Of a DNA stretch of 64,000 bases, positions 6,081-19,638 are shown in pieces (positions within the stretch are counted from its first letter, which is position 1; the number at the start of each line of letters is the position of its first letter). Under the pieces are notes generated by a model. That model was given only the letters and a program-made list of their open reading frames with translations, was not told the DNA's origin and ran no database searches. This stretch comes from a bacterium (GTDB lineage Bacteria; Patescibacteriota; Minisyncoccia; Phycocordibacterales; UBA5272): NCBI GenBank assembly GCA_043719155.1, contig JAYSUJ010000022.1, positions 10,448 through 74,447 on the forward strand. The letters run 5' to 3'. The translations under genes were made by a program, and so were the position numbers.

Positions 6081-7328
6081 TTATTTGCTATTTTTGTAAA
6101 ACTTTTCACAAAATTCCTTTTTAAAATTAAAAAAATTATCTTCTAATATTGATTGCCTTATTTTCTCTACGAGAGAGATTAAGAAATATAAATTATGTTC
6201 CGAAACTAAAATAGCCCCCAGCATCTCGTCACTTCTAAATAAATGGGCGATGTAAGCATGTGAGTACGGGTAGAGTGGCGAATTTATATCTGTAGTTATT
6301 TTACTAAAGTCTGTTTTATATTTCGAGTTTTCAATATTTATTTTTCCATTTTCTGTGAAAATCTGACCATGTCTAGCGATTCTAGTTGGGATAACGCAAT
6401 CAAAAGTATCTACGCCGTACTCAACCCCTAAGAAAAAATCTATAGGTTCACCTATACCTAAAAGATGTCTGGGTTTATTTTCAGGCAAAACTTCCGTGAC
6501 ACTTTTCACTGTTTTATCCATGTCTTCTTTTGTAAAACTACCACCGATACCAAAACCATCAAAATCCATTTTTGATAGAATTTCTGCTGATTCTTTTCTT
6601 AAATCTTCGTACCCTCCACCTTGGACTACTGCAAACAAAGCTTGTTGCTCACCTGTTGCACTACTTACACCCAACTTTTTATGTTCATCGACACATCTTT
6701 TTGCCCAACGATGTGTTCTGTCCATTGCAGCAATTTGGTATTCACGAGTTGCAAGTGGTGAGGTGCATTCGTCAAAGGCAAAAAAAATATCTGCACCAAG
6801 CTTATGTTGTATCTGCATTGATACTTCTGGGGTGAATCTGTGTGTTGAGCCATCAATAAAACTCTTAAAAGTGACACCTTCCTCATCAACTTTTGCCATT
6901 TGTTCTTTTGTCGACTTAACAACCTTGTCCAGCATGCTTTGCTTTTCCTCAGCTATTTTTTTACTAGTCGCAATTTTAGTAACTCCAGAGTTAAAAGCCG
7001 CACCCAAACTTAGTACTTGAAACCCGCCAGAGTCCGTCCATGTTGGGCCAAAATAATTCATAAATTTTCCGAAACCACCGGCTTGCTCAACAATCTCCAT
7101 ACCAGGTTGTAAATAGAGGTGATAAGTATTTGCTAAAATACTTCGGCTACCAATTTTTTCTAATGAGGAGACCTGTACACCTTTAACTGTGGCTTTGGTC
7201 CCTACTGGTACAAAACAAGGTGTTAAAATATCTCCGTGTGGAGTAATTATTCTACCTGCTCTAGCTAAAGCTGCTTCAAAGCTTTTTTTTTGTATCTTAA
7301 ATGAGAATTCTTTATTTTTATTTTGCAT
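6081..7328 (-). CDS. tgt: Queuine tRNA-ribosyltransferase (tRNA-guanine transglycosylase)
   Basis: TDSGGFQV catalytic Asp, GIGEPID, FDCVIPTR, ..SEHN; 415 aa with ~25-aa internal insertion; zinc Cys triad absent (see findings). Confidence 0.88.
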   Translation of the reverse strand: MQNKNKEFSFKIQKKSFEAALARAGRIITPHGDILTPCFVPVGTKATVKGVQVSSLEKIGSRSILANTYHLYLQPGMEIVEQAGGFGKFMNYFGPTWTDSGGFQVLSLGAAFNSGVTKIATSKKIAEEKQSMLDKVVKSTKEQMAKVDEEGVTFKSFIDGSTHRFTPEVSMQIQHKLGADIFFAFDECTSPLATREYQIAAMDRTHRWAKRCVDEHKKLGVSSATGEQQALFAVVQGGGYEDLRKESAEILSKMDFDGFGIGGSFTKEDMDKTVKSVTEVLPENKPRHLLGIGEPIDFFLGVEYGVDTFDCVIPTRIARHGQIFTENGKINIENSKYKTDFSKITTDINSPLYPYSHAYIAHLFRSDEMLGAILVSEHNLYFLISLVEKIRQSILEDNFFNFKKEFCEKFYKNSK

Positions 7329-9382: not shown

Positions 9383-10306
9383 ATGAGTAAGTATGTAACA
9401 GATGGAAAAAATAAGGAGATAGTTGGACTTTGTTTAATAATAATTTTTTGTATTGCTGCCAGAGTTCTACCTTTCGGTCTGATTGGCATAATTGTTCCAC
9501 TCCTAATGCTTGCGTTAGTGGCTTTTTATTTTTTTAAATATGTAGACAACGAGTTTGCATCTACCAATTTAATTAAGACAAAACCTGTTGTAGAATTTTC
9601 ATGGGGATACGTAAAGTCTGATGTACCAAAGCTAAATACTCTGGTATTGCTAGATTTTTTGAAAGCTAAAGACTTTTCTTTCTATAAGAATTTCCTAAGT
9701 TTGAACTTAATAAATCTTGTTTTTATTCTTTTTGTGTTCGGAGACTTTATTTTGGTATTTAAAAATTTAAGTTTTGAAGAGTCCGGAATTTATTTTATGT
9801 TCTCAATTTTTACAAAATTTGTTTTCGTTGGTTATTTCTTGTTGAGAAAAAACATGCAAGTAATTGAAGGAGAGTCTACCGTTGATGATAAGGAATTGAA
9901 AGTTCTGGATATTTTCTATAAACACGTAAATGGTATGATCTCGCTTTTCCTTGTGCTCTTCTTCTCTTTTTTTGTTTTAGCAAAATACATTATAGAGATT
10001 TTCTTTGGCAATCCATACGCACTTTACCAATCTTCTTTACCTTTTGTATTGGCTGCCAACTCCGCTTTAGTTATAGCTTTTTGTGTATATTTAACTGCAA
10101 ACATGATAAATAAAGAAGTGACCGCAAAAGTCATGAAGGTATTTGCTACATTTCTGACAATCTTTTTTGTGTTTATGCCTATAAATTACATTGACACTGT
10201 GACTTATTTTATAACAGGTTCGTCTTTAATCTTATCGATATTTTTGTACAACCTTGTAATTAAGAAACCTTCTTACATTGAGCACACCTACAACCTGACT
10301 TTTTAA
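9383..10306 (+). CDS. Hypothetical polytopic membrane protein (307 aa, ~8 TM)
   Basis: Multiple hydrophobic segments; no recognisable motif; 3-prime end overlaps SET gene convergently. Confidence 0.5.
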   Translation: MSKYVTDGKNKEIVGLCLIIIFCIAARVLPFGLIGIIVPLLMLALVAFYFFKYVDNEFASTNLIKTKPVVEFSWGYVKSDVPKLNTLVLLDFLKAKDFSFYKNFLSLNLINLVFILFVFGDFILVFKNLSFEESGIYFMFSIFTKFVFVGYFLLRKNMQVIEGESTVDDKELKVLDIFYKHVNGMISLFLVLFFSFFVLAKYIIEIFFGNPYALYQSSLPFVLAANSALVIAFCVYLTANMINKEVTAKVMKVFATFLTIFFVFMPINYIDTVTYFITGSSLILSIFLYNLVIKKPSYIEHTYNLTF

Positions 10307-10682
10307 TATAGTCGTTTATATACTCTTGCCCATAGTCAAAAGTAATTTCCTCTCCGGTGGTTATTTTTCTCTTAGCGGATATAAATATTCTTTCTTCACC
10401 TTCCATTATACTTTCTGCATTTGGGGCGCAGCTATGATTAAAATATCTAGCCACGTTGTATTGAGGAGAACCGTCCAGTGACCACTTCTCATCTATTTCA
10501 AATATATATCTATTTGGATTTTCATTGGCTTCTTCGTTGGTAATTTTCTTTCCGATATACTGCATTATCTTTGCACCTCTTTTAATTGTTTCTAATGCAA
10601 ATATCCCCCTACCAGAAAAGCTTGTCTTTACTATGGTTTTTGGGTATTTTTTAATTTTGTCTGTTTCTATAGCTTTTTTCAT
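10260..10682 (-). CDS. SET-domain protein-lysine methyltransferase with post-SET cysteine cluster
   Basis: GRGIFA, NHSCAPN, EEITFDYG and post-SET CRCAQC motifs. Confidence 0.8.
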   Translation of the reverse strand: MKKAIETDKIKKYPKTIVKTSFSGRGIFALETIKRGAKIMQYIGKKITNEEANENPNRYIFEIDEKWSLDGSPQYNVARYFNHSCAPNAESIMEGEERIFISAKRKITTGEEITFDYGQEYINDYIKKSGCRCAQCKKVS

Positions 10683-10773: not shown

Positions 10774-11199
10774 ATGAAAACAAACAAAGTATTCGTTGCA
10801 GGTATCGCTTATCGCGACCTTGACGGAAATCCATTAACAGGAAGACATGGTGACCAAAAACTTGCAGACCTTTTTGGAAGAGCTGGTAAAATAGCTATGA
10901 AGAAATTGGCAAGAAGAGATGGTACTGAAGTTGAGGTTGTAGCAGCAAACATTGCTGTAGACCGAGACACAAAATTATCTCGTGGGTTCGGATTCGTAGA
11001 ATTTGAAACAGTTGAGGCTGCTGAAAAGGCAATCGAAATGTTCAACGGCTTCGAATTTGAAGGCCGTGTTATAACTGTACGTTTCTCAGAACCTCGTCCA
11101 GAAGGAGATGCAAGACCTGCACGTTCTTCAGGAGGTTACGATAGAGATGGCGGAAATGGTGGTGGTAACGGTGGTTACTCTCGTGACCGAAGAAATTAA
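10774..11199 (+). CDS. RNA-binding protein with RRM (RNP-1 RGFGFVEF) and Gly/Arg-rich C-terminal tail
   Basis: KVFVAG RNP-2, RGFGFVEF RNP-1, GGYDRDGGNGGGNGGYSRDRR tail; GC-elevated; own terminator. Confidence 0.8.
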   Translation: MKTNKVFVAGIAYRDLDGNPLTGRHGDQKLADLFGRAGKIAMKKLARRDGTEVEVVAANIAVDRDTKLSRGFGFVEFETVEAAEKAIEMFNGFEFEGRVITVRFSEPRPEGDARPARSSGGYDRDGGNGGGNGGYSRDRRN

Positions 11200-11693: not shown

Positions 11694-13103
<1,410 letters not shown>

Positions 13104-13207
13104 TTAATTATAGCATTTTTTTATTTTATTCTAAAGTTTTTTATATAGACAGAGTTATTTATTTGTGTTATTATATATTTAGTGTCAACAGTGGAAAGGA
13201 TGATTTT

Positions 13208-13423
13208 ATGCTGAGTATTACCATGACACGGAAGGCAAAGTTCCTTCGCAATATGCTTATTGTTATCTTGATAACCACCTTAGGTCTAGCGGAGCTGCAA
13301 GGCAACGCAGGACTTAGCTCTATCCAGTGGATAGGGGTTGTAGTTGGAAAGTGGGCGGGTTACCTGCTCACTATCTACACAGGTTGGAAACTCTTGCTGG
13401 CAATGTTTGCGAAGGGAAAGTGA
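13208..13423 (+). CDS. Small hypothetical membrane protein (71 aa; ORF-track ORF starts 13163) antisense within ATP synthase operon, GC-elevated
   Basis: RBS GGAAAGGA 7 nt before ATG 13208; MLSITMTRKAKFLRNMLIVILITTLGLAE... two hydrophobic helices; followed by terminator. Confidence 0.35.
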   Translation: MLSITMTRKAKFLRNMLIVILITTLGLAELQGNAGLSSIQWIGVVVGKWAGYLLTIYTGWKLLLAMFAKGK

Positions 13424-13442
13424 GCTGTTAAATTGGCTTGCG

Positions 13443-13474
13443 CCGCTGGTTTCCCAAGATCAGCGGTTTTTTTA
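13443..13474 (+). terminator. Plus-strand intrinsic terminator inside atpG-atpD gap
   Basis: ccgctgg-tttcccaagat-cagcgg + TTTTTTT; on minus strand the T-run precedes the stem so it is not a minus-strand terminator. Confidence 0.55.
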
Positions 13475-16802: not shown

Positions 16803-17018
16803 TTACATTATAAAGTAACCAACGAATGCCAAGATCGCAATAGACTCGATAAGTGCAGCCCCGATAAGCATTTTAGTAAAAATGTCACCTGATGCCTCTG
16901 GGTTTCTACCCATTGCTTCTAACGCTTTTGCCATCATAATTCCTTGCCCGATACCAACTCCCAATAGTGGTAACAACGCTATACCTTTTGCCAACATTTT
17001 TGCCGCTTCTATTTCCAT
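16803..17018 (-). CDS. atpE: ATP synthase Fo subunit c
   Basis: 71-aa hairpin proteolipid, GIGQG and conserved carboxylate (ALIESIAI). Confidence 0.9.
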   Translation of the reverse strand: MEIEAAKMLAKGIALLPLLGVGIGQGIMMAKALEAMGRNPEASGDIFTKMLIGAALIESIAILAFVGYFIM

Positions 17019-17046
17019 ATATTATTTATATTATTTTGTAATTTAG

Positions 17047-17082
17047 CACTAATTATTGATAAATTGATATTAAAACAATTTA
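17047..17082. promoter_or_regulatory. Perfect 10-bp inverted repeat (ttgataaatt-N12-aatttatcaa) in atpE upstream gap; candidate operator
   Basis: Seen directly; sits in AT-rich 136-bp gap between HExxH gene and atpE with TTGCAA/TAAATAT-like promoter elements on minus strand. Confidence 0.3.
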
Positions 17083-17154
17083 TCAATCTATTTTAACATT
17101 TTTTACTAGAAAAGTTTATATTTACAAGTTGCAAATTTACTGTTGAAATTGTGA

Positions 17155-18027
17155 CTAAACACCACAACTGTTCGTAACCTCTAGAAACTTTTCAATATCC
17201 CCGTCTTTTATTCCTCTAAAAAAATCCGTCATGTTGTTGTCAAAACCAATGTCATTTACATAGTGTAACTCCGCAAAGACTATATGCTCCTTTGTTAGTG
17301 CTTCGTCGCCGGAAAAACCAAAGTAGTTTTTAATCTGAGAAATTCTCTCCATTATTTCATTTGGCCTTTGCATGTATTCTCTGTCTTCTAAATTTTCAAT
17401 GAACATAAAGTTCAAGCCTTGATTAAAATATAAGCCTGCTAGACTGAAATCCAATTTTCTTAGCATGTGACCTTTTTCATGTGCAACTGCAACATTCATT
17501 GCTTTTAGAGGATATACCTTAGCATTTAATTTTTTCCCCCAATTTGGAACAACTCCTTTTTCCATTGTAGATTCCAGAACACTTTTTTTTGAAAGGTCAA
17601 CTTTTGTGTATGTATTGGATATCTCAATTTGTAGATCCAAGATTCTACTTAGCAGCTCTTTACTGTATGGAGTTTTATTGTAAAATGCAGCAGAAGACTC
17701 ATTGATAGCCTCATTCACCATGTCTCTCAATTCTTTGGGTATACTTACATCTACAGGGTTTTGCACATCCTGAAGAAAAGTATGGAAAAACGGTGTTCTG
17801 ATTAAGGTATACATGCCATCTGCAAATTCTCCGGGATTGTTCATTTGCGAATTTAAAAGCAGGTTCAAAAACTTTTCTCTCACTTTCAAATTTCGCAAAC
17901 GTGAATACATAAGTTCGCAGTCATTACATTCTAAATTTGGCTTTAGAGTTTCCGAATATTCACCACCTAAAGGTGATTTAAGTTTTTTAACTACTTTGTG
18001 TTCTGACTTTTGACTCGGAAATAACAT
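17155..18027 (-). CDS. Hypothetical soluble protein with HExxH (HEKGH) putative zinc-metallopeptidase motif, inserted between atpB and atpE
   Basis: AVAHEKGHML at residues 183-187 (nt 17467-17481); no signal peptide; 290 aa. Confidence 0.55.
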   Translation of the reverse strand: MLFPSQKSEHKVVKKLKSPLGGEYSETLKPNLECNDCELMYSRLRNLKVREKFLNLLLNSQMNNPGEFADGMYTLIRTPFFHTFLQDVQNPVDVSIPKELRDMVNEAINESSAAFYNKTPYSKELLSRILDLQIEISNTYTKVDLSKKSVLESTMEKGVVPNWGKKLNAKVYPLKAMNVAVAHEKGHMLRKLDFSLAGLYFNQGLNFMFIENLEDREYMQRPNEIMERISQIKNYFGFSGDEALTKEHIVFAELHYVNDIGFDNNMTDFFRGIKDGDIEKFLEVTNSCGV

Positions 18028-18033
18028 TTCATT

Positions 18034-18888
18034 TTAATGTCCCTCTTGTCCCACTTCTTTGACAACTAAAACATAGTATACAGCTGTCAGACAACCTATA
18101 ACTACCGTTTGTATTATTGCCACCATAAAGTCAAAACCTAGCCAAACAGCAGGAAGAGCTATAGCAAAAATACCAGTTAAAATAGCTAGTAAAATTTCCC
18201 CGGCAAACATGTTACCGAAAAGACGCAGTGAAAGCGAGATTATCTTTACAAATTCTGAGATAAGTTCTAGTAAGCCAACAAATAACTCTATCAAACCCAT
18301 AAAAAAACCACCTACTCCCTGCTTAGCACCATTCCAAACCAAATGTAGTGGCACAAACCTTTTAAAATACCCAAAGAAACCCCAGTTTTTAACCCCGAAA
18401 AACTGCATGGATAAAACAATGGTTAAAGCAAGAGGAAAAGTTACATTTATGTCACTAGTAGCCTTTCTAAAAAAAGGAACAATCTGCCCACCTTCTAACC
18501 AGGTGAACTGAGAAATTATAGGGAAAGACCCGATTATGTTTATGCTGCCTACTATTAGGAAAATTGCAGCTATTGGGAAAAGGAGTTGAACATTTCTGTG
18601 GGCTTTGCCCCCAGTTAATGAGTCAACAAGTGATTCAATACTAGTCAAGATCATTTCAACTAAACTTTGAAAGAAAGATGGTACCTCTTTAAATTTTTTT
18701 ACAGTTAAATAAAAAAGTATAAACAGTACTGTGATAAAAAAAAGAAAAGTGGTCGAATTTGAAATCGGCCAACTTCCAACATGTCCAAGAGTATCTGCCT
18801 TTACCCCTGGCATATGTGGGTGAGGAAAGAGTAGCTTTTGGGTTTCTGTCTGCTCAAGCTCAGGTTTTGCAACTTGTGTGTGTTCCAT
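18034..18888 (-). CDS. atpB: ATP synthase Fo subunit a
   Basis: LSLRLFGNMFAGE with conserved Arg, 5-6 TM. Confidence 0.9.
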   Translation of the reverse strand: MEHTQVAKPELEQTETQKLLFPHPHMPGVKADTLGHVGSWPISNSTTFLFFITVLFILFYLTVKKFKEVPSFFQSLVEMILTSIESLVDSLTGGKAHRNVQLLFPIAAIFLIVGSINIIGSFPIISQFTWLEGGQIVPFFRKATSDINVTFPLALTIVLSMQFFGVKNWGFFGYFKRFVPLHLVWNGAKQGVGGFFMGLIELFVGLLELISEFVKIISLSLRLFGNMFAGEILLAILTGIFAIALPAVWLGFDFMVAIIQTVVIGCLTAVYYVLVVKEVGQEGH

Positions 18889-18954: not shown

Positions 18955-19638
18955 TTATTTTATCCCCAACTCTTTAAAGACTTCTTCGTAATTTGAAAGA
19001 GCAGCCTCTGCCTCAGCTTGTGTTAAGTCATATTTTACGCCAACGCGGACAATTCTTGTGCGAAGCTTATGTGCCTCCAAAGCTTCACGAACTTTTGTAA
19101 AACCCTTTTCGTAGGCGTCTGACAACATCTCTACAATTCCAGCACCTGTATAATTGTTTTCAATTAATAAGTTTTTTAAAACTGTGTCGAGTTCTATGAT
19201 ACCGATCTTCCATTCCTCCGGGAATCTGGAAGCTATATGGGCTTTACTTTTTTCAAATTTAAAAACATTGTGGGATATTTTAGCCAACTCGTCCTCCTTT
19301 GAGGGTACATACATTTTAGAAAATCTGTGATGTATATCGTGTACATGGTGGTCAAACTTATGTTTAAAATTAAAAAATTTGTAGATTAAAAATATAGCAT
19401 AAAGTACAAAGAATATTTCGAGTGCATTTAGAAAATAAATAAAGTTGATTGCAGTTTCACGATTTAAAAAAACGAGGAAAAAAGAAAGTATTAGTGTACC
19501 ACCTACAGTTATAATTGCCTTTAGAGCATCGACAAAAGGTTTAAATATACTTGGATGTCCATGGTCATCTTTTTTGACTTCTTTTGGAGCCTCTTTTTTT
19601 GCGTCTGCTGGTCCAGCTGGTTTTGGTGCGTCTGCCAT
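18955..19638 (-). CDS. Hypothetical membrane protein (N-terminal Lys/Ala-rich, 2 TM, His-rich loop, soluble C-domain) heading the ATP synthase operon
   Basis: MADAPKPAGPADAKKEAPKEVKKDDHGH..; position where atpI would be expected but 227 aa with extra C-domain. Confidence 0.45.
   Translation of the reverse strand: MADAPKPAGPADAKKEAPKEVKKDDHGHPSIFKPFVDALKAIITVGGTLILSFFLVFLNRETAINFIYFLNALEIFFVLYAIFLIYKFFNFKHKFDHHVHDIHHRFSKMYVPSKEDELAKISHNVFKFEKSKAHIASRFPEEWKIGIIELDTVLKNLLIENNYTGAGIVEMLSDAYEKGFTKVREALEAHKLRTRIVRVGVKYDLTQAEAEAALSNYEEVFKELGIK

Follow-up and report, generated by a model that had tools for sequence, protein, structure and literature searches.

A putative metal-dependent hydrolase gene between atpB and atpE of an ATP synthase operon and its protein family in Patescibacteria

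Organization of the atp locus

An F-type ATP synthase operon occupies 11.7-18.9 kb on the minus strand of a 64-kb stretch of contig JAYSUJ010000022.1 (the window), and between its atpB and atpE genes lies an open reading frame (ORF) for a 290-amino-acid soluble protein, here called ORF290. An identical contig is present in a public sequencing run (L001); the Logan run SRR22198340 carries the contig. The gene order on the minus strand is atpB, ORF290 and atpE, followed by atpF, atpH, atpA, atpG and atpD (Table 1). The interruption of atpB-atpE by a soluble HExxH protein, the placement of the H183, E184 and H187 codons in an AVAHEKGHML motif and the AT-rich gap ahead of atpE had all been reported in an initial annotation of this stretch, and each was verified here along with the ORF coordinates.

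The stop codon of atpB and the start codon of ORF290 are separated by 6 nt (TAA-AATGAA-ATG), and this spacing, together with the absence of a terminator, suggests that ORF290 is part of the atp transcript. The maximum Kyte-Doolittle score of any 19-mer in ORF290 was 0.93, and no transmembrane or signal segment was detected. The window contains no paralog of ORF290. The AtpB protein encoded upstream has a soluble leader of ~40 amino acids ahead of its first transmembrane helix.

Table 1. Features of the atpB-atpE region and of the ORF290 protein family (positions refer to the window unless another locus is named)
Feature	Position	Strand	Basis or remark
atpB (F-ATPase subunit a)	18034..18888	-	Pfam ATP-synt_A, E=2.1e-33; upstream of insert
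ORF290, 290-aa soluble protein, putative metal-dependent hydrolase	17155..18027	-	ORF and family homologues
N-terminal helical-bundle half, codons 36-139	17611..17922	-	Family N-terminal motif
HEKGH (H183-E184-K185-G186-H187), putative metal-binding and catalytic motif	17467..17481	-	Inside helix 174-189
E224-I-M-E227-R228, conserved E-x-x-E-R helix motif	17344..17358	-	E224 is the candidate third metal ligand
Spacer, ORF290 stop codon to atpE start codon, 136 bp, 16% GC	17019..17154		
Perfect inverted repeat, 12-nt arms ATTGATAAATTG (17055-17066) and CAATTTATCAAT (17076-17087), 9-nt loop	17055..17087		
atpE (F-ATPase subunit c)	16803..17018	-	Pfam ATP-synt_C, E=1.5e-15; downstream of insert
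Other architectures of the HExxH...KNYFG domain	L087 8001-9320 (P0004); P0006; P0245		

The ORF290 protein family

A word-indexed search with ORF290 returned the protein itself and a few proteins of 418-505 amino acids that share its last ~70 residues. The exhaustive HMMER search detected homologues in 428 representative clusters (50% identity) at E<=1e-3, 232 of them at E<=1e-10. The homologues are mostly 240-360 amino acids long and the match extends to the C-terminus; the nearest of them is merely 38% identical to ORF290. Family members with a named source came from metagenome-assembled genomes (MAGs) of Falkowbacteria, Zambryskibacteria, Parcubacteria and Minisyncoccia, and all of them are annotated as 'hypothetical protein'. 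A literature search on the motif 'HEKGH' found nothing relevant. A transmembrane-like 19-mer (score >=1.6) was present in only one of 180 family proteins, suggesting that the family is cytoplasmic.

The conservation of the HExxH motif among homologues was upheld. It was found in 157 of the 158 retrieved family proteins, almost always as HEKGH, and the single exception is a fragment of 97 amino acids. H183, E184, H187, R228, Y256 and F281 were invariant in an alignment of 87 sequences, and the block E224-I-x-E227-R228-M-S-Q-L-K-N-Y-F-G (EIxERMSQLKNYFG) was nearly so. A larger alignment of 110 sequences, which takes in divergent prophage variants, retained H183, E184, H187 and R228 in every sequence, E224 in 109 (the remaining one has Asp) and E227 in 102. 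The prophage variants, which carry the motif as HEFAH, keep E224 and R228 and have Ala in place of E227. Since E224 is retained where E227 is not, E224 is more likely than E227 to be a third metal ligand. The N-terminal half also carries a family motif, with the consensus ANYEGN..LL..RL.NP.I, which in ORF290 reads LECNDCELMYSRLRNLKV. On this evidence from sequence, ORF290 is a genuine gene of a large, undescribed family of Patescibacteria, the Candidate Phyla Radiation (CPR).

Tandem paralogs of the family were observed in some metagenomic genomes (L096, 4833-5642 and 5715-6473; L119, 113-931 and 1037-1921).

Predicted structure and relation to known metallopeptidases

The AlphaFold2 model of ORF290, built with the family alignment, had a predicted local distance difference test score (pLDDT) of 84.5 and a predicted template modelling score (pTM) of 0.85. 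In this model, residues 36-139 form a helical bundle in the N-terminal half, and the C-terminal domain, also helical, has the HExxH motif within helix 174-189 and E224..R228 within helix 222-235. A separate model of residues 130-290 had a pLDDT of 86.7. When the ORF290 models were compared with solved structures, no known zincin structure matched them significantly, and the zincin-like fold was not recovered although the models are confident.

Searches against sequence models gave a similar picture. A Pfam scan of ORF290 at E<=1 returned only DUF5312, below its cutoff, and an NCBIfam scan returned nothing. No peptidase family was found in Pfam scans of 87 relatives (E<=0.01) and of 10 long relatives. 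Searches of the PDB by single sequence and by profile gave spurious matches at E>1 alone. PADLOC returned nothing for ORF290, and the PHROGs search gave one match without a function, located in the N-terminal half and outside the catalytic half.

A HExxH motif on one helix followed by a conserved Glu on a later helix is the classic signature of the gluzincins, MEROPS clan MA(E), in which the HExxH residues are joined by a downstream Glu ligand, as in thermolysin (M4) and neprilysin/PepO (M13). ORF290 likewise has a conserved HExxH on a helix and a candidate Glu (E224) on a downstream helix, but the mixed beta-sheet of zincins is missing from its almost entirely helical predicted domain and no sequence model of these families matches it. 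Because the gluzincin-like signature is strongly conserved and no zincin fold was found in the models, we liken ORF290 to the gluzincins and do not file it among them; it probably works like a gluzincin-type metallohydrolase.

The motif had been described as a hallmark of zincin-like metallopeptidases of the ImmA/IrrE, SprT and YgjP types, and membership of these types was not supported. No Pfam or NCBIfam model matched ORF290 or the 87 relatives, and this includes the profiles for ImmA/IrrE (Peptidase_M78), SprT/ArdC-type and YgjP/DUF45 proteins. ImmA/IrrE proteins typically have an adjacent partner with a helix-turn-helix (HTH) domain of the Xre type, whereas the neighbors of ORF290 are atpB and atpE, and no HTH neighbor recurred among 84 homologue loci. 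ORF290 also differs from all three types by the Glu on a later helix, which is followed by the family-specific ERMSQLKNYFG motif.

The same structural results raise the alternative that the HExxH...E site does not belong to a peptidase, and that the family consists of metal-dependent enzymes without proteolytic activity, or else of proteins that bind metal or have a regulatory role, built on a new and mainly helical fold. The lack of significant zincin similarity and of a zincin beta-sheet in confident models, the lack of a match to any peptidase family model and the fusion of one family member to a nucleotidyltransferase domain are in line with such a function. The combination of HExxH with a Glu on a later helix is nevertheless that of gluzincins, none of the 110 aligned sequences departs from the H, E and H residues, and the segment that would form the sheet was modelled at low confidence. 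We regard a non-peptidase function as unlikely but credible. Independently of the operon in which ORF290 resides, the HExxH...E metal site of the family may be carried on a mostly helical scaffold of a kind not seen before and specific to CPR bacteria.

Synteny in related atp operons

The AtpB protein of the window is nearest to those of Candidatus Saccharibacteria MAGs, with the best match in locus L002 (76% identity), followed by remoter Saccharibacteria and Parcubacteria. The L002 operon is collinear with that of the window and its AtpE, AtpA and AtpD proteins are 89, 85 and 94% identical, respectively, to their counterparts. In L002, atpB ends at 6825 and atpE starts at 7011, and the 185-bp spacer between them contains no gene. 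The AtpB protein of L002 has the same N-terminal leader as that of the window, though L002 lacks ORF290. In six further loci (L003, L004, L005, L011, L026 and L031), atpB is followed directly by atpE with spacers of about 70-260 bp. ORF290 was therefore missing from all seven of the other Patescibacteria/Saccharibacteria atp loci examined, which suggests that the insertion is specific to the lineage of the window and agrees with the initial description of the arrangement as unusual. When the spacer of the window was aligned with that of L002, only the last ~12 nt before atpE were clearly common to both, and the boundaries of the insertion could not be defined.

The L002 operon has an insert of its own, an ORF of 116 amino acids between atpA and atpG (9686-10036). 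This cupin-like ORF matched Cupin_2 at 1.8e-4, which is below the cutoff.

Genomic context of the family

The homologues gave no sign of a link to ATP synthase. We compared 87 homologue loci (494 kb, searched for atp genes by tblastn) and three loci of the homologues P0010 and P0050, and none of these 90 loci had atp genes near the family member. Clustering of 302 flanking proteins from 84 homologue loci revealed no recurrent neighbor; the largest cluster was found in six of the 84 loci, all from one lineage. The neighbors were scattered housekeeping genes, including those for a response regulator, a Nudix protein, a ClpB-like ATPase, the arginine deiminase pathway, LemA and DnaK. Chaperone genes among these neighbors (ClpB-like in five loci and DnaK in three) were too sparse to be used. 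The closest homologue, P0010, adjoins a gene for a HicB-like antitoxin on a short contig.

With no atp association in 90 loci, no conserved neighbor and an L002 operon that lacks the gene, the suggestion that ORF290 exerts regulated or proteolytic control of Fo assembly was not borne out. The placement of ORF290 in the atp operon appears incidental, and the protein would then have no dedicated role in ATP synthase biogenesis.

P0050 (L170, 330-1127; L171, 486-1283) shares the N-terminal ECND-ELM-SRL motif with ORF290. Its gene also interrupts an operon for a membrane complex, being located between a gene for a HlyD/MacA-like adaptor and genes for the ATP-binding cassette (ABC) ATPase and permease of a MacAB-like system.

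The inverted repeat upstream of atpE

The spacer between ORF290 and atpE contains a perfect inverted repeat, which begins 67 nt past the stop codon of ORF290 and ends 36 nt ahead of the atpE ATG. A repeat had been reported at 17047-17082 with an N12 spacer; its existence was confirmed and its coordinates were not, the 10-nt core being located at 17056-17065 and 17077-17086, with the two halves 11 nt apart. When the spacer was shuffled 3000 times with its dinucleotide content preserved, a perfect arm of at least 12 nt arose in 0.27% of the shuffles (P about 0.003), and folding of the 43-nt hairpin as RNA gave -10.6 kcal/mol (z = -4.1). The window contains seven perfect inverted repeats of at least 12 nt compared to an expected 0.2, suggesting that the genome is generally rich in hairpins of this kind. 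Only two of the 12 pairs in the stem are G-C, unlike the GC-containing, terminator-like hairpins found elsewhere in the window.

On the sense (minus) strand, an A-rich stretch precedes the hairpin and the 3' flank is AAUUAGUGCUAAAUUAC. Since no U-tract follows the hairpin on this strand, it is not a sense-strand intrinsic terminator. The candidate function of an intrinsic (Rho-independent) terminator was rejected on three grounds: the stem is not G+C-rich, the U-tract is missing and the terminator scan does not report the site. The spacer had no match in Rfam.

The atpB-atpE spacer of L002 contains a 16-bp hairpin that is unrelated in sequence and much stronger (6841-6878; -25.1 kcal/mol, z -8) and lies shortly past the atpB stop codon. 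A hairpin before atpE was also found in L026 and was not found in L003, L004 and L011. Differential expression of the cistrons of the Escherichia coli atp operon depends on the structure and stability of the mRNA. The stem-loop before atpE is a feature that the window has in common with other bacterial atp operons that contain intercistronic hairpins, and with L002, where the hairpin differs in sequence. The stem described here differs from those hairpins in that it is almost purely A-U and follows an inserted gene that is not an atp gene. With moderate support, we read the repeat as a modest intercistronic RNA hairpin that would affect processing of the transcript, its stability or the uncoupling of translation upstream of atpE.

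The repeat was initially described as an operator. As such, ATTGATAAATTG-N9-CAATTTATCAAT would be bound by a dimeric regulator that controls an internal promoter and drives atpE-atpD independently of atpB-ORF290. A perfect 12-nt dyad is improbable by chance, its position 36 nt upstream of atpE in a spacer of 16% GC would suit a regulatory site, and both the low number of G-C pairs in the stem and the missing U-tract set it apart from a terminator. A functional operator might be expected to recur, but the half-site was not enriched (20 matches with <=1 mismatch against 20.7 expected) and no second dyad was found, so that the motif occurs only once within the 64-kb window. No regulator gene is adjacent. 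A consensus scan found neither a sigma-70-like promoter nor a terminator-like site on the minus strand of the spacer, and inspection by hand for -35/-10 pairs around the dyad found poor matches alone, so no internal promoter is claimed. The hairpin at the same junction in L002 is also clearly of the RNA type and unrelated in sequence. Operator function is thus unlikely, though a credible rival.

Evidence bearing on a mobile origin

The C-terminal domain of ORF290 is also found outside the family of 240-360-amino-acid proteins (Table 1). In the form HEFAH...ELTAR..QIKNYFG it is present in the proteins of 418-505 amino acids, which are encoded in a prophage-like island together with an integrase, a serine recombinase, an HNH protein, a transpeptidase and a glucosaminidase. 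Two fusions of the domain were seen, one with a glucosaminidase domain and the other, in a CPR protein, with an NTP_transf_2 nucleotidyltransferase domain. Its presence in prophage-like island proteins suggests that the domain has moved between cellular and mobile contexts.

Whether ORF290 itself is recent cargo is another matter. The initial annotation had raised the possibility of an inserted selfish gene, and on a reading of this kind ORF290 would be recently inserted cargo, for example a phage- or island-derived effector or toxin-like metallopeptidase, and the palindrome a remnant of its insertion. The gene is absent from L002, its domain has the prophage-like and glucosaminidase-fused relatives just described, P0010 adjoins the HicB-like antitoxin gene and the same operon region contains further lineage-specific insertions, all of which would fit a gene of mobile or conflict origin. 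However, no integrase, transposase or recombinase genes and no direct or inverted terminal repeats flank ORF290, and only 6 nt separate it from atpB. Its GC content is host-like (0.345 compared to 0.359 for the window). A scan of viral contigs with the family profile detected no relatives, and neither PADLOC nor any functional PHROG matched. Most homologues reside among housekeeping genes of CPR chromosomes, and the divergence of ORF290 from everything else, its nearest homologue included, argues against recent transfer. A selfish or mobile gene is a very unlikely explanation.

Comparison with Atp23

The AtpB and AtpE proteins, subunits a and c, are homologues of Atp6 and Atp9, respectively. 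A HExxH protein, Atp23, acts in the intermembrane space, in contrast to ORF290, which has no export signal. Mitochondrial Atp23 is a HExxH metalloprotease that processes Atp6 and assists ATP synthase assembly (PMC12315970, PMC8877559). The position of ORF290 exactly between the genes for subunits a and c, its probable co-transcription with them and the soluble leader of AtpB make a suggestive context for a similar, dedicated Fo factor, a protease or chaperone of the HExxH type with a part in processing subunit a or in its joining with the c-ring. There is no detectable homology between the two proteins: Peptidase_M76, the family of Atp23, matched neither ORF290 at E<=1 nor the 87 relatives at E<=0.01. 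ORF290 has no membrane anchor or signal peptide, its homologues were near atp genes in none of the 90 loci, and seven related atp operons lack the gene, including L002, whose AtpB has the same leader; an Atp23-like role is most improbable. By analogy, one could go further and imagine that ORF290 was recruited as an Atp23 counterpart, a soluble, co-translated HExxH enzyme that, as Fo is assembled in a reduced-genome episymbiont, trims subunit a (or c) or acts as its chaperone, with the hairpin setting the ratio of a : ORF290 : c, and this too is scarcely probable.

Other features of the operon

A second interruption of the operon was observed between atpG and atpD, where the gap (window 13089-13471) is 383 bp compared to ~60 bp in L002. 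The gap contains an ORF of 86 amino acids on the opposite strand (13163-13423, +), whose product has two hydrophobic stretches and matched nothing in Pfam. The stop codon of atpG is followed by a hairpin, CCGCTG...CAGCGG (13443-13466). A sequence resembling an extended -10 element, TGcTATAAT (13107-13115, minus strand), is located 18 nt ahead of the atpD ATG. Searches of this gap for tRNA genes and Rfam families gave no match.

Directly upstream of atpB, a position often occupied by atpI, is an ORF of 227 amino acids (18955-19638, minus strand). The N-terminus of its product is rich in Lys, Ala and Pro, two transmembrane helices are predicted and the C-terminal half is soluble. It had no match in Pfam, NCBIfam or PADLOC and was not found beside atpB in L002-L004. 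Beyond atpC are genes for a SET-domain protein of 140 amino acids and an RRM_1 RNA-binding protein of 141 amino acids (window ~10260-10682 and ~10774-11199); proteins of both kinds are uncommon in bacteria. A sub-threshold Rfam match to the small RNA SorX was detected within the atpB coding region (18745-18822, minus strand). Its score of 21.6 bits (E=0.036) compares to a gathering score of 46.6, and the match is most likely due to chance.

Interpretation

We favor, with moderate confidence, the explanation that ORF290 is a housekeeping-type gene of a Candidatus Saccharibacteria (TM7) genome, that it encodes a probable metallohydrolase of a CPR family and was placed incidentally in the atp operon, and that the repeat in the spacer is an RNA hairpin. 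The family would consist of soluble, cytoplasmic proteins of about 250-350 amino acids in which a helical bundle makes up the N-terminal part, and a second, likewise helical domain at the C-terminus carries the invariant HExxH on one helix and the invariant E..(E)R on a later helix. H183 and H187, with E224 as the third ligand, may hold a divalent metal (Zn2+), and E184 may activate a water molecule, by analogy with peptidases and metallohydrolases of the gluzincin type. The position of ORF290 between atpB and atpE would be the result of a lineage-specific rearrangement or insertion, which would have put it on one transcript with the atp genes, and the hairpin may serve as a processing or stability element that uncouples expression of atpE from the upstream cistrons.

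Several observations weigh against parts of this explanation. The only beta structure before the HExxH helix in the model is two bridges of two residues each, so that a zincin beta-sheet is lacking, and the segment ahead of that helix has a pLDDT of about 58-60. Residue 181 of ORF290 is Val, although Glu occupies this position in 99 of 110 relatives. The low identity to the nearest homologue speaks against a simple history of the gene in its lineage. The folding of the whole 151-nt spacer is not unusual (z -1.3), and the predicted co-transcription of ORF290 with the atp genes derives from their spacing.

The initial reading of the locus is partly supported: the gene is real, the insertion is unusual and the HExxH motif is conserved, whereas the functional claims are not supported. 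Neither a zincin fold nor retention of the insertion in relatives was found. The most useful result is that a HExxH...E family, unannotated so far, was recognized across the CPR, and that its fold, although predicted with confidence, resembles no solved structure.

The placement of ORF290 mainly shows the plasticity of the atp operon in Saccharibacteria, with three different lineage-specific interruptions in two related genomes; on present evidence, it opens no new route to ATP synthase assembly or regulation. The family has at least 428 clusters at 50% identity and the annotation 'hypothetical protein' everywhere. If the function suggested by the motif is correct, its members are HExxH metallohydrolases of the cytoplasm with a predicted fold unlike any solved structure, and the family merits a Pfam entry and a structure. 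It would then also provide a candidate enzyme of proteostasis or processing in organisms whose proteomes are very small.

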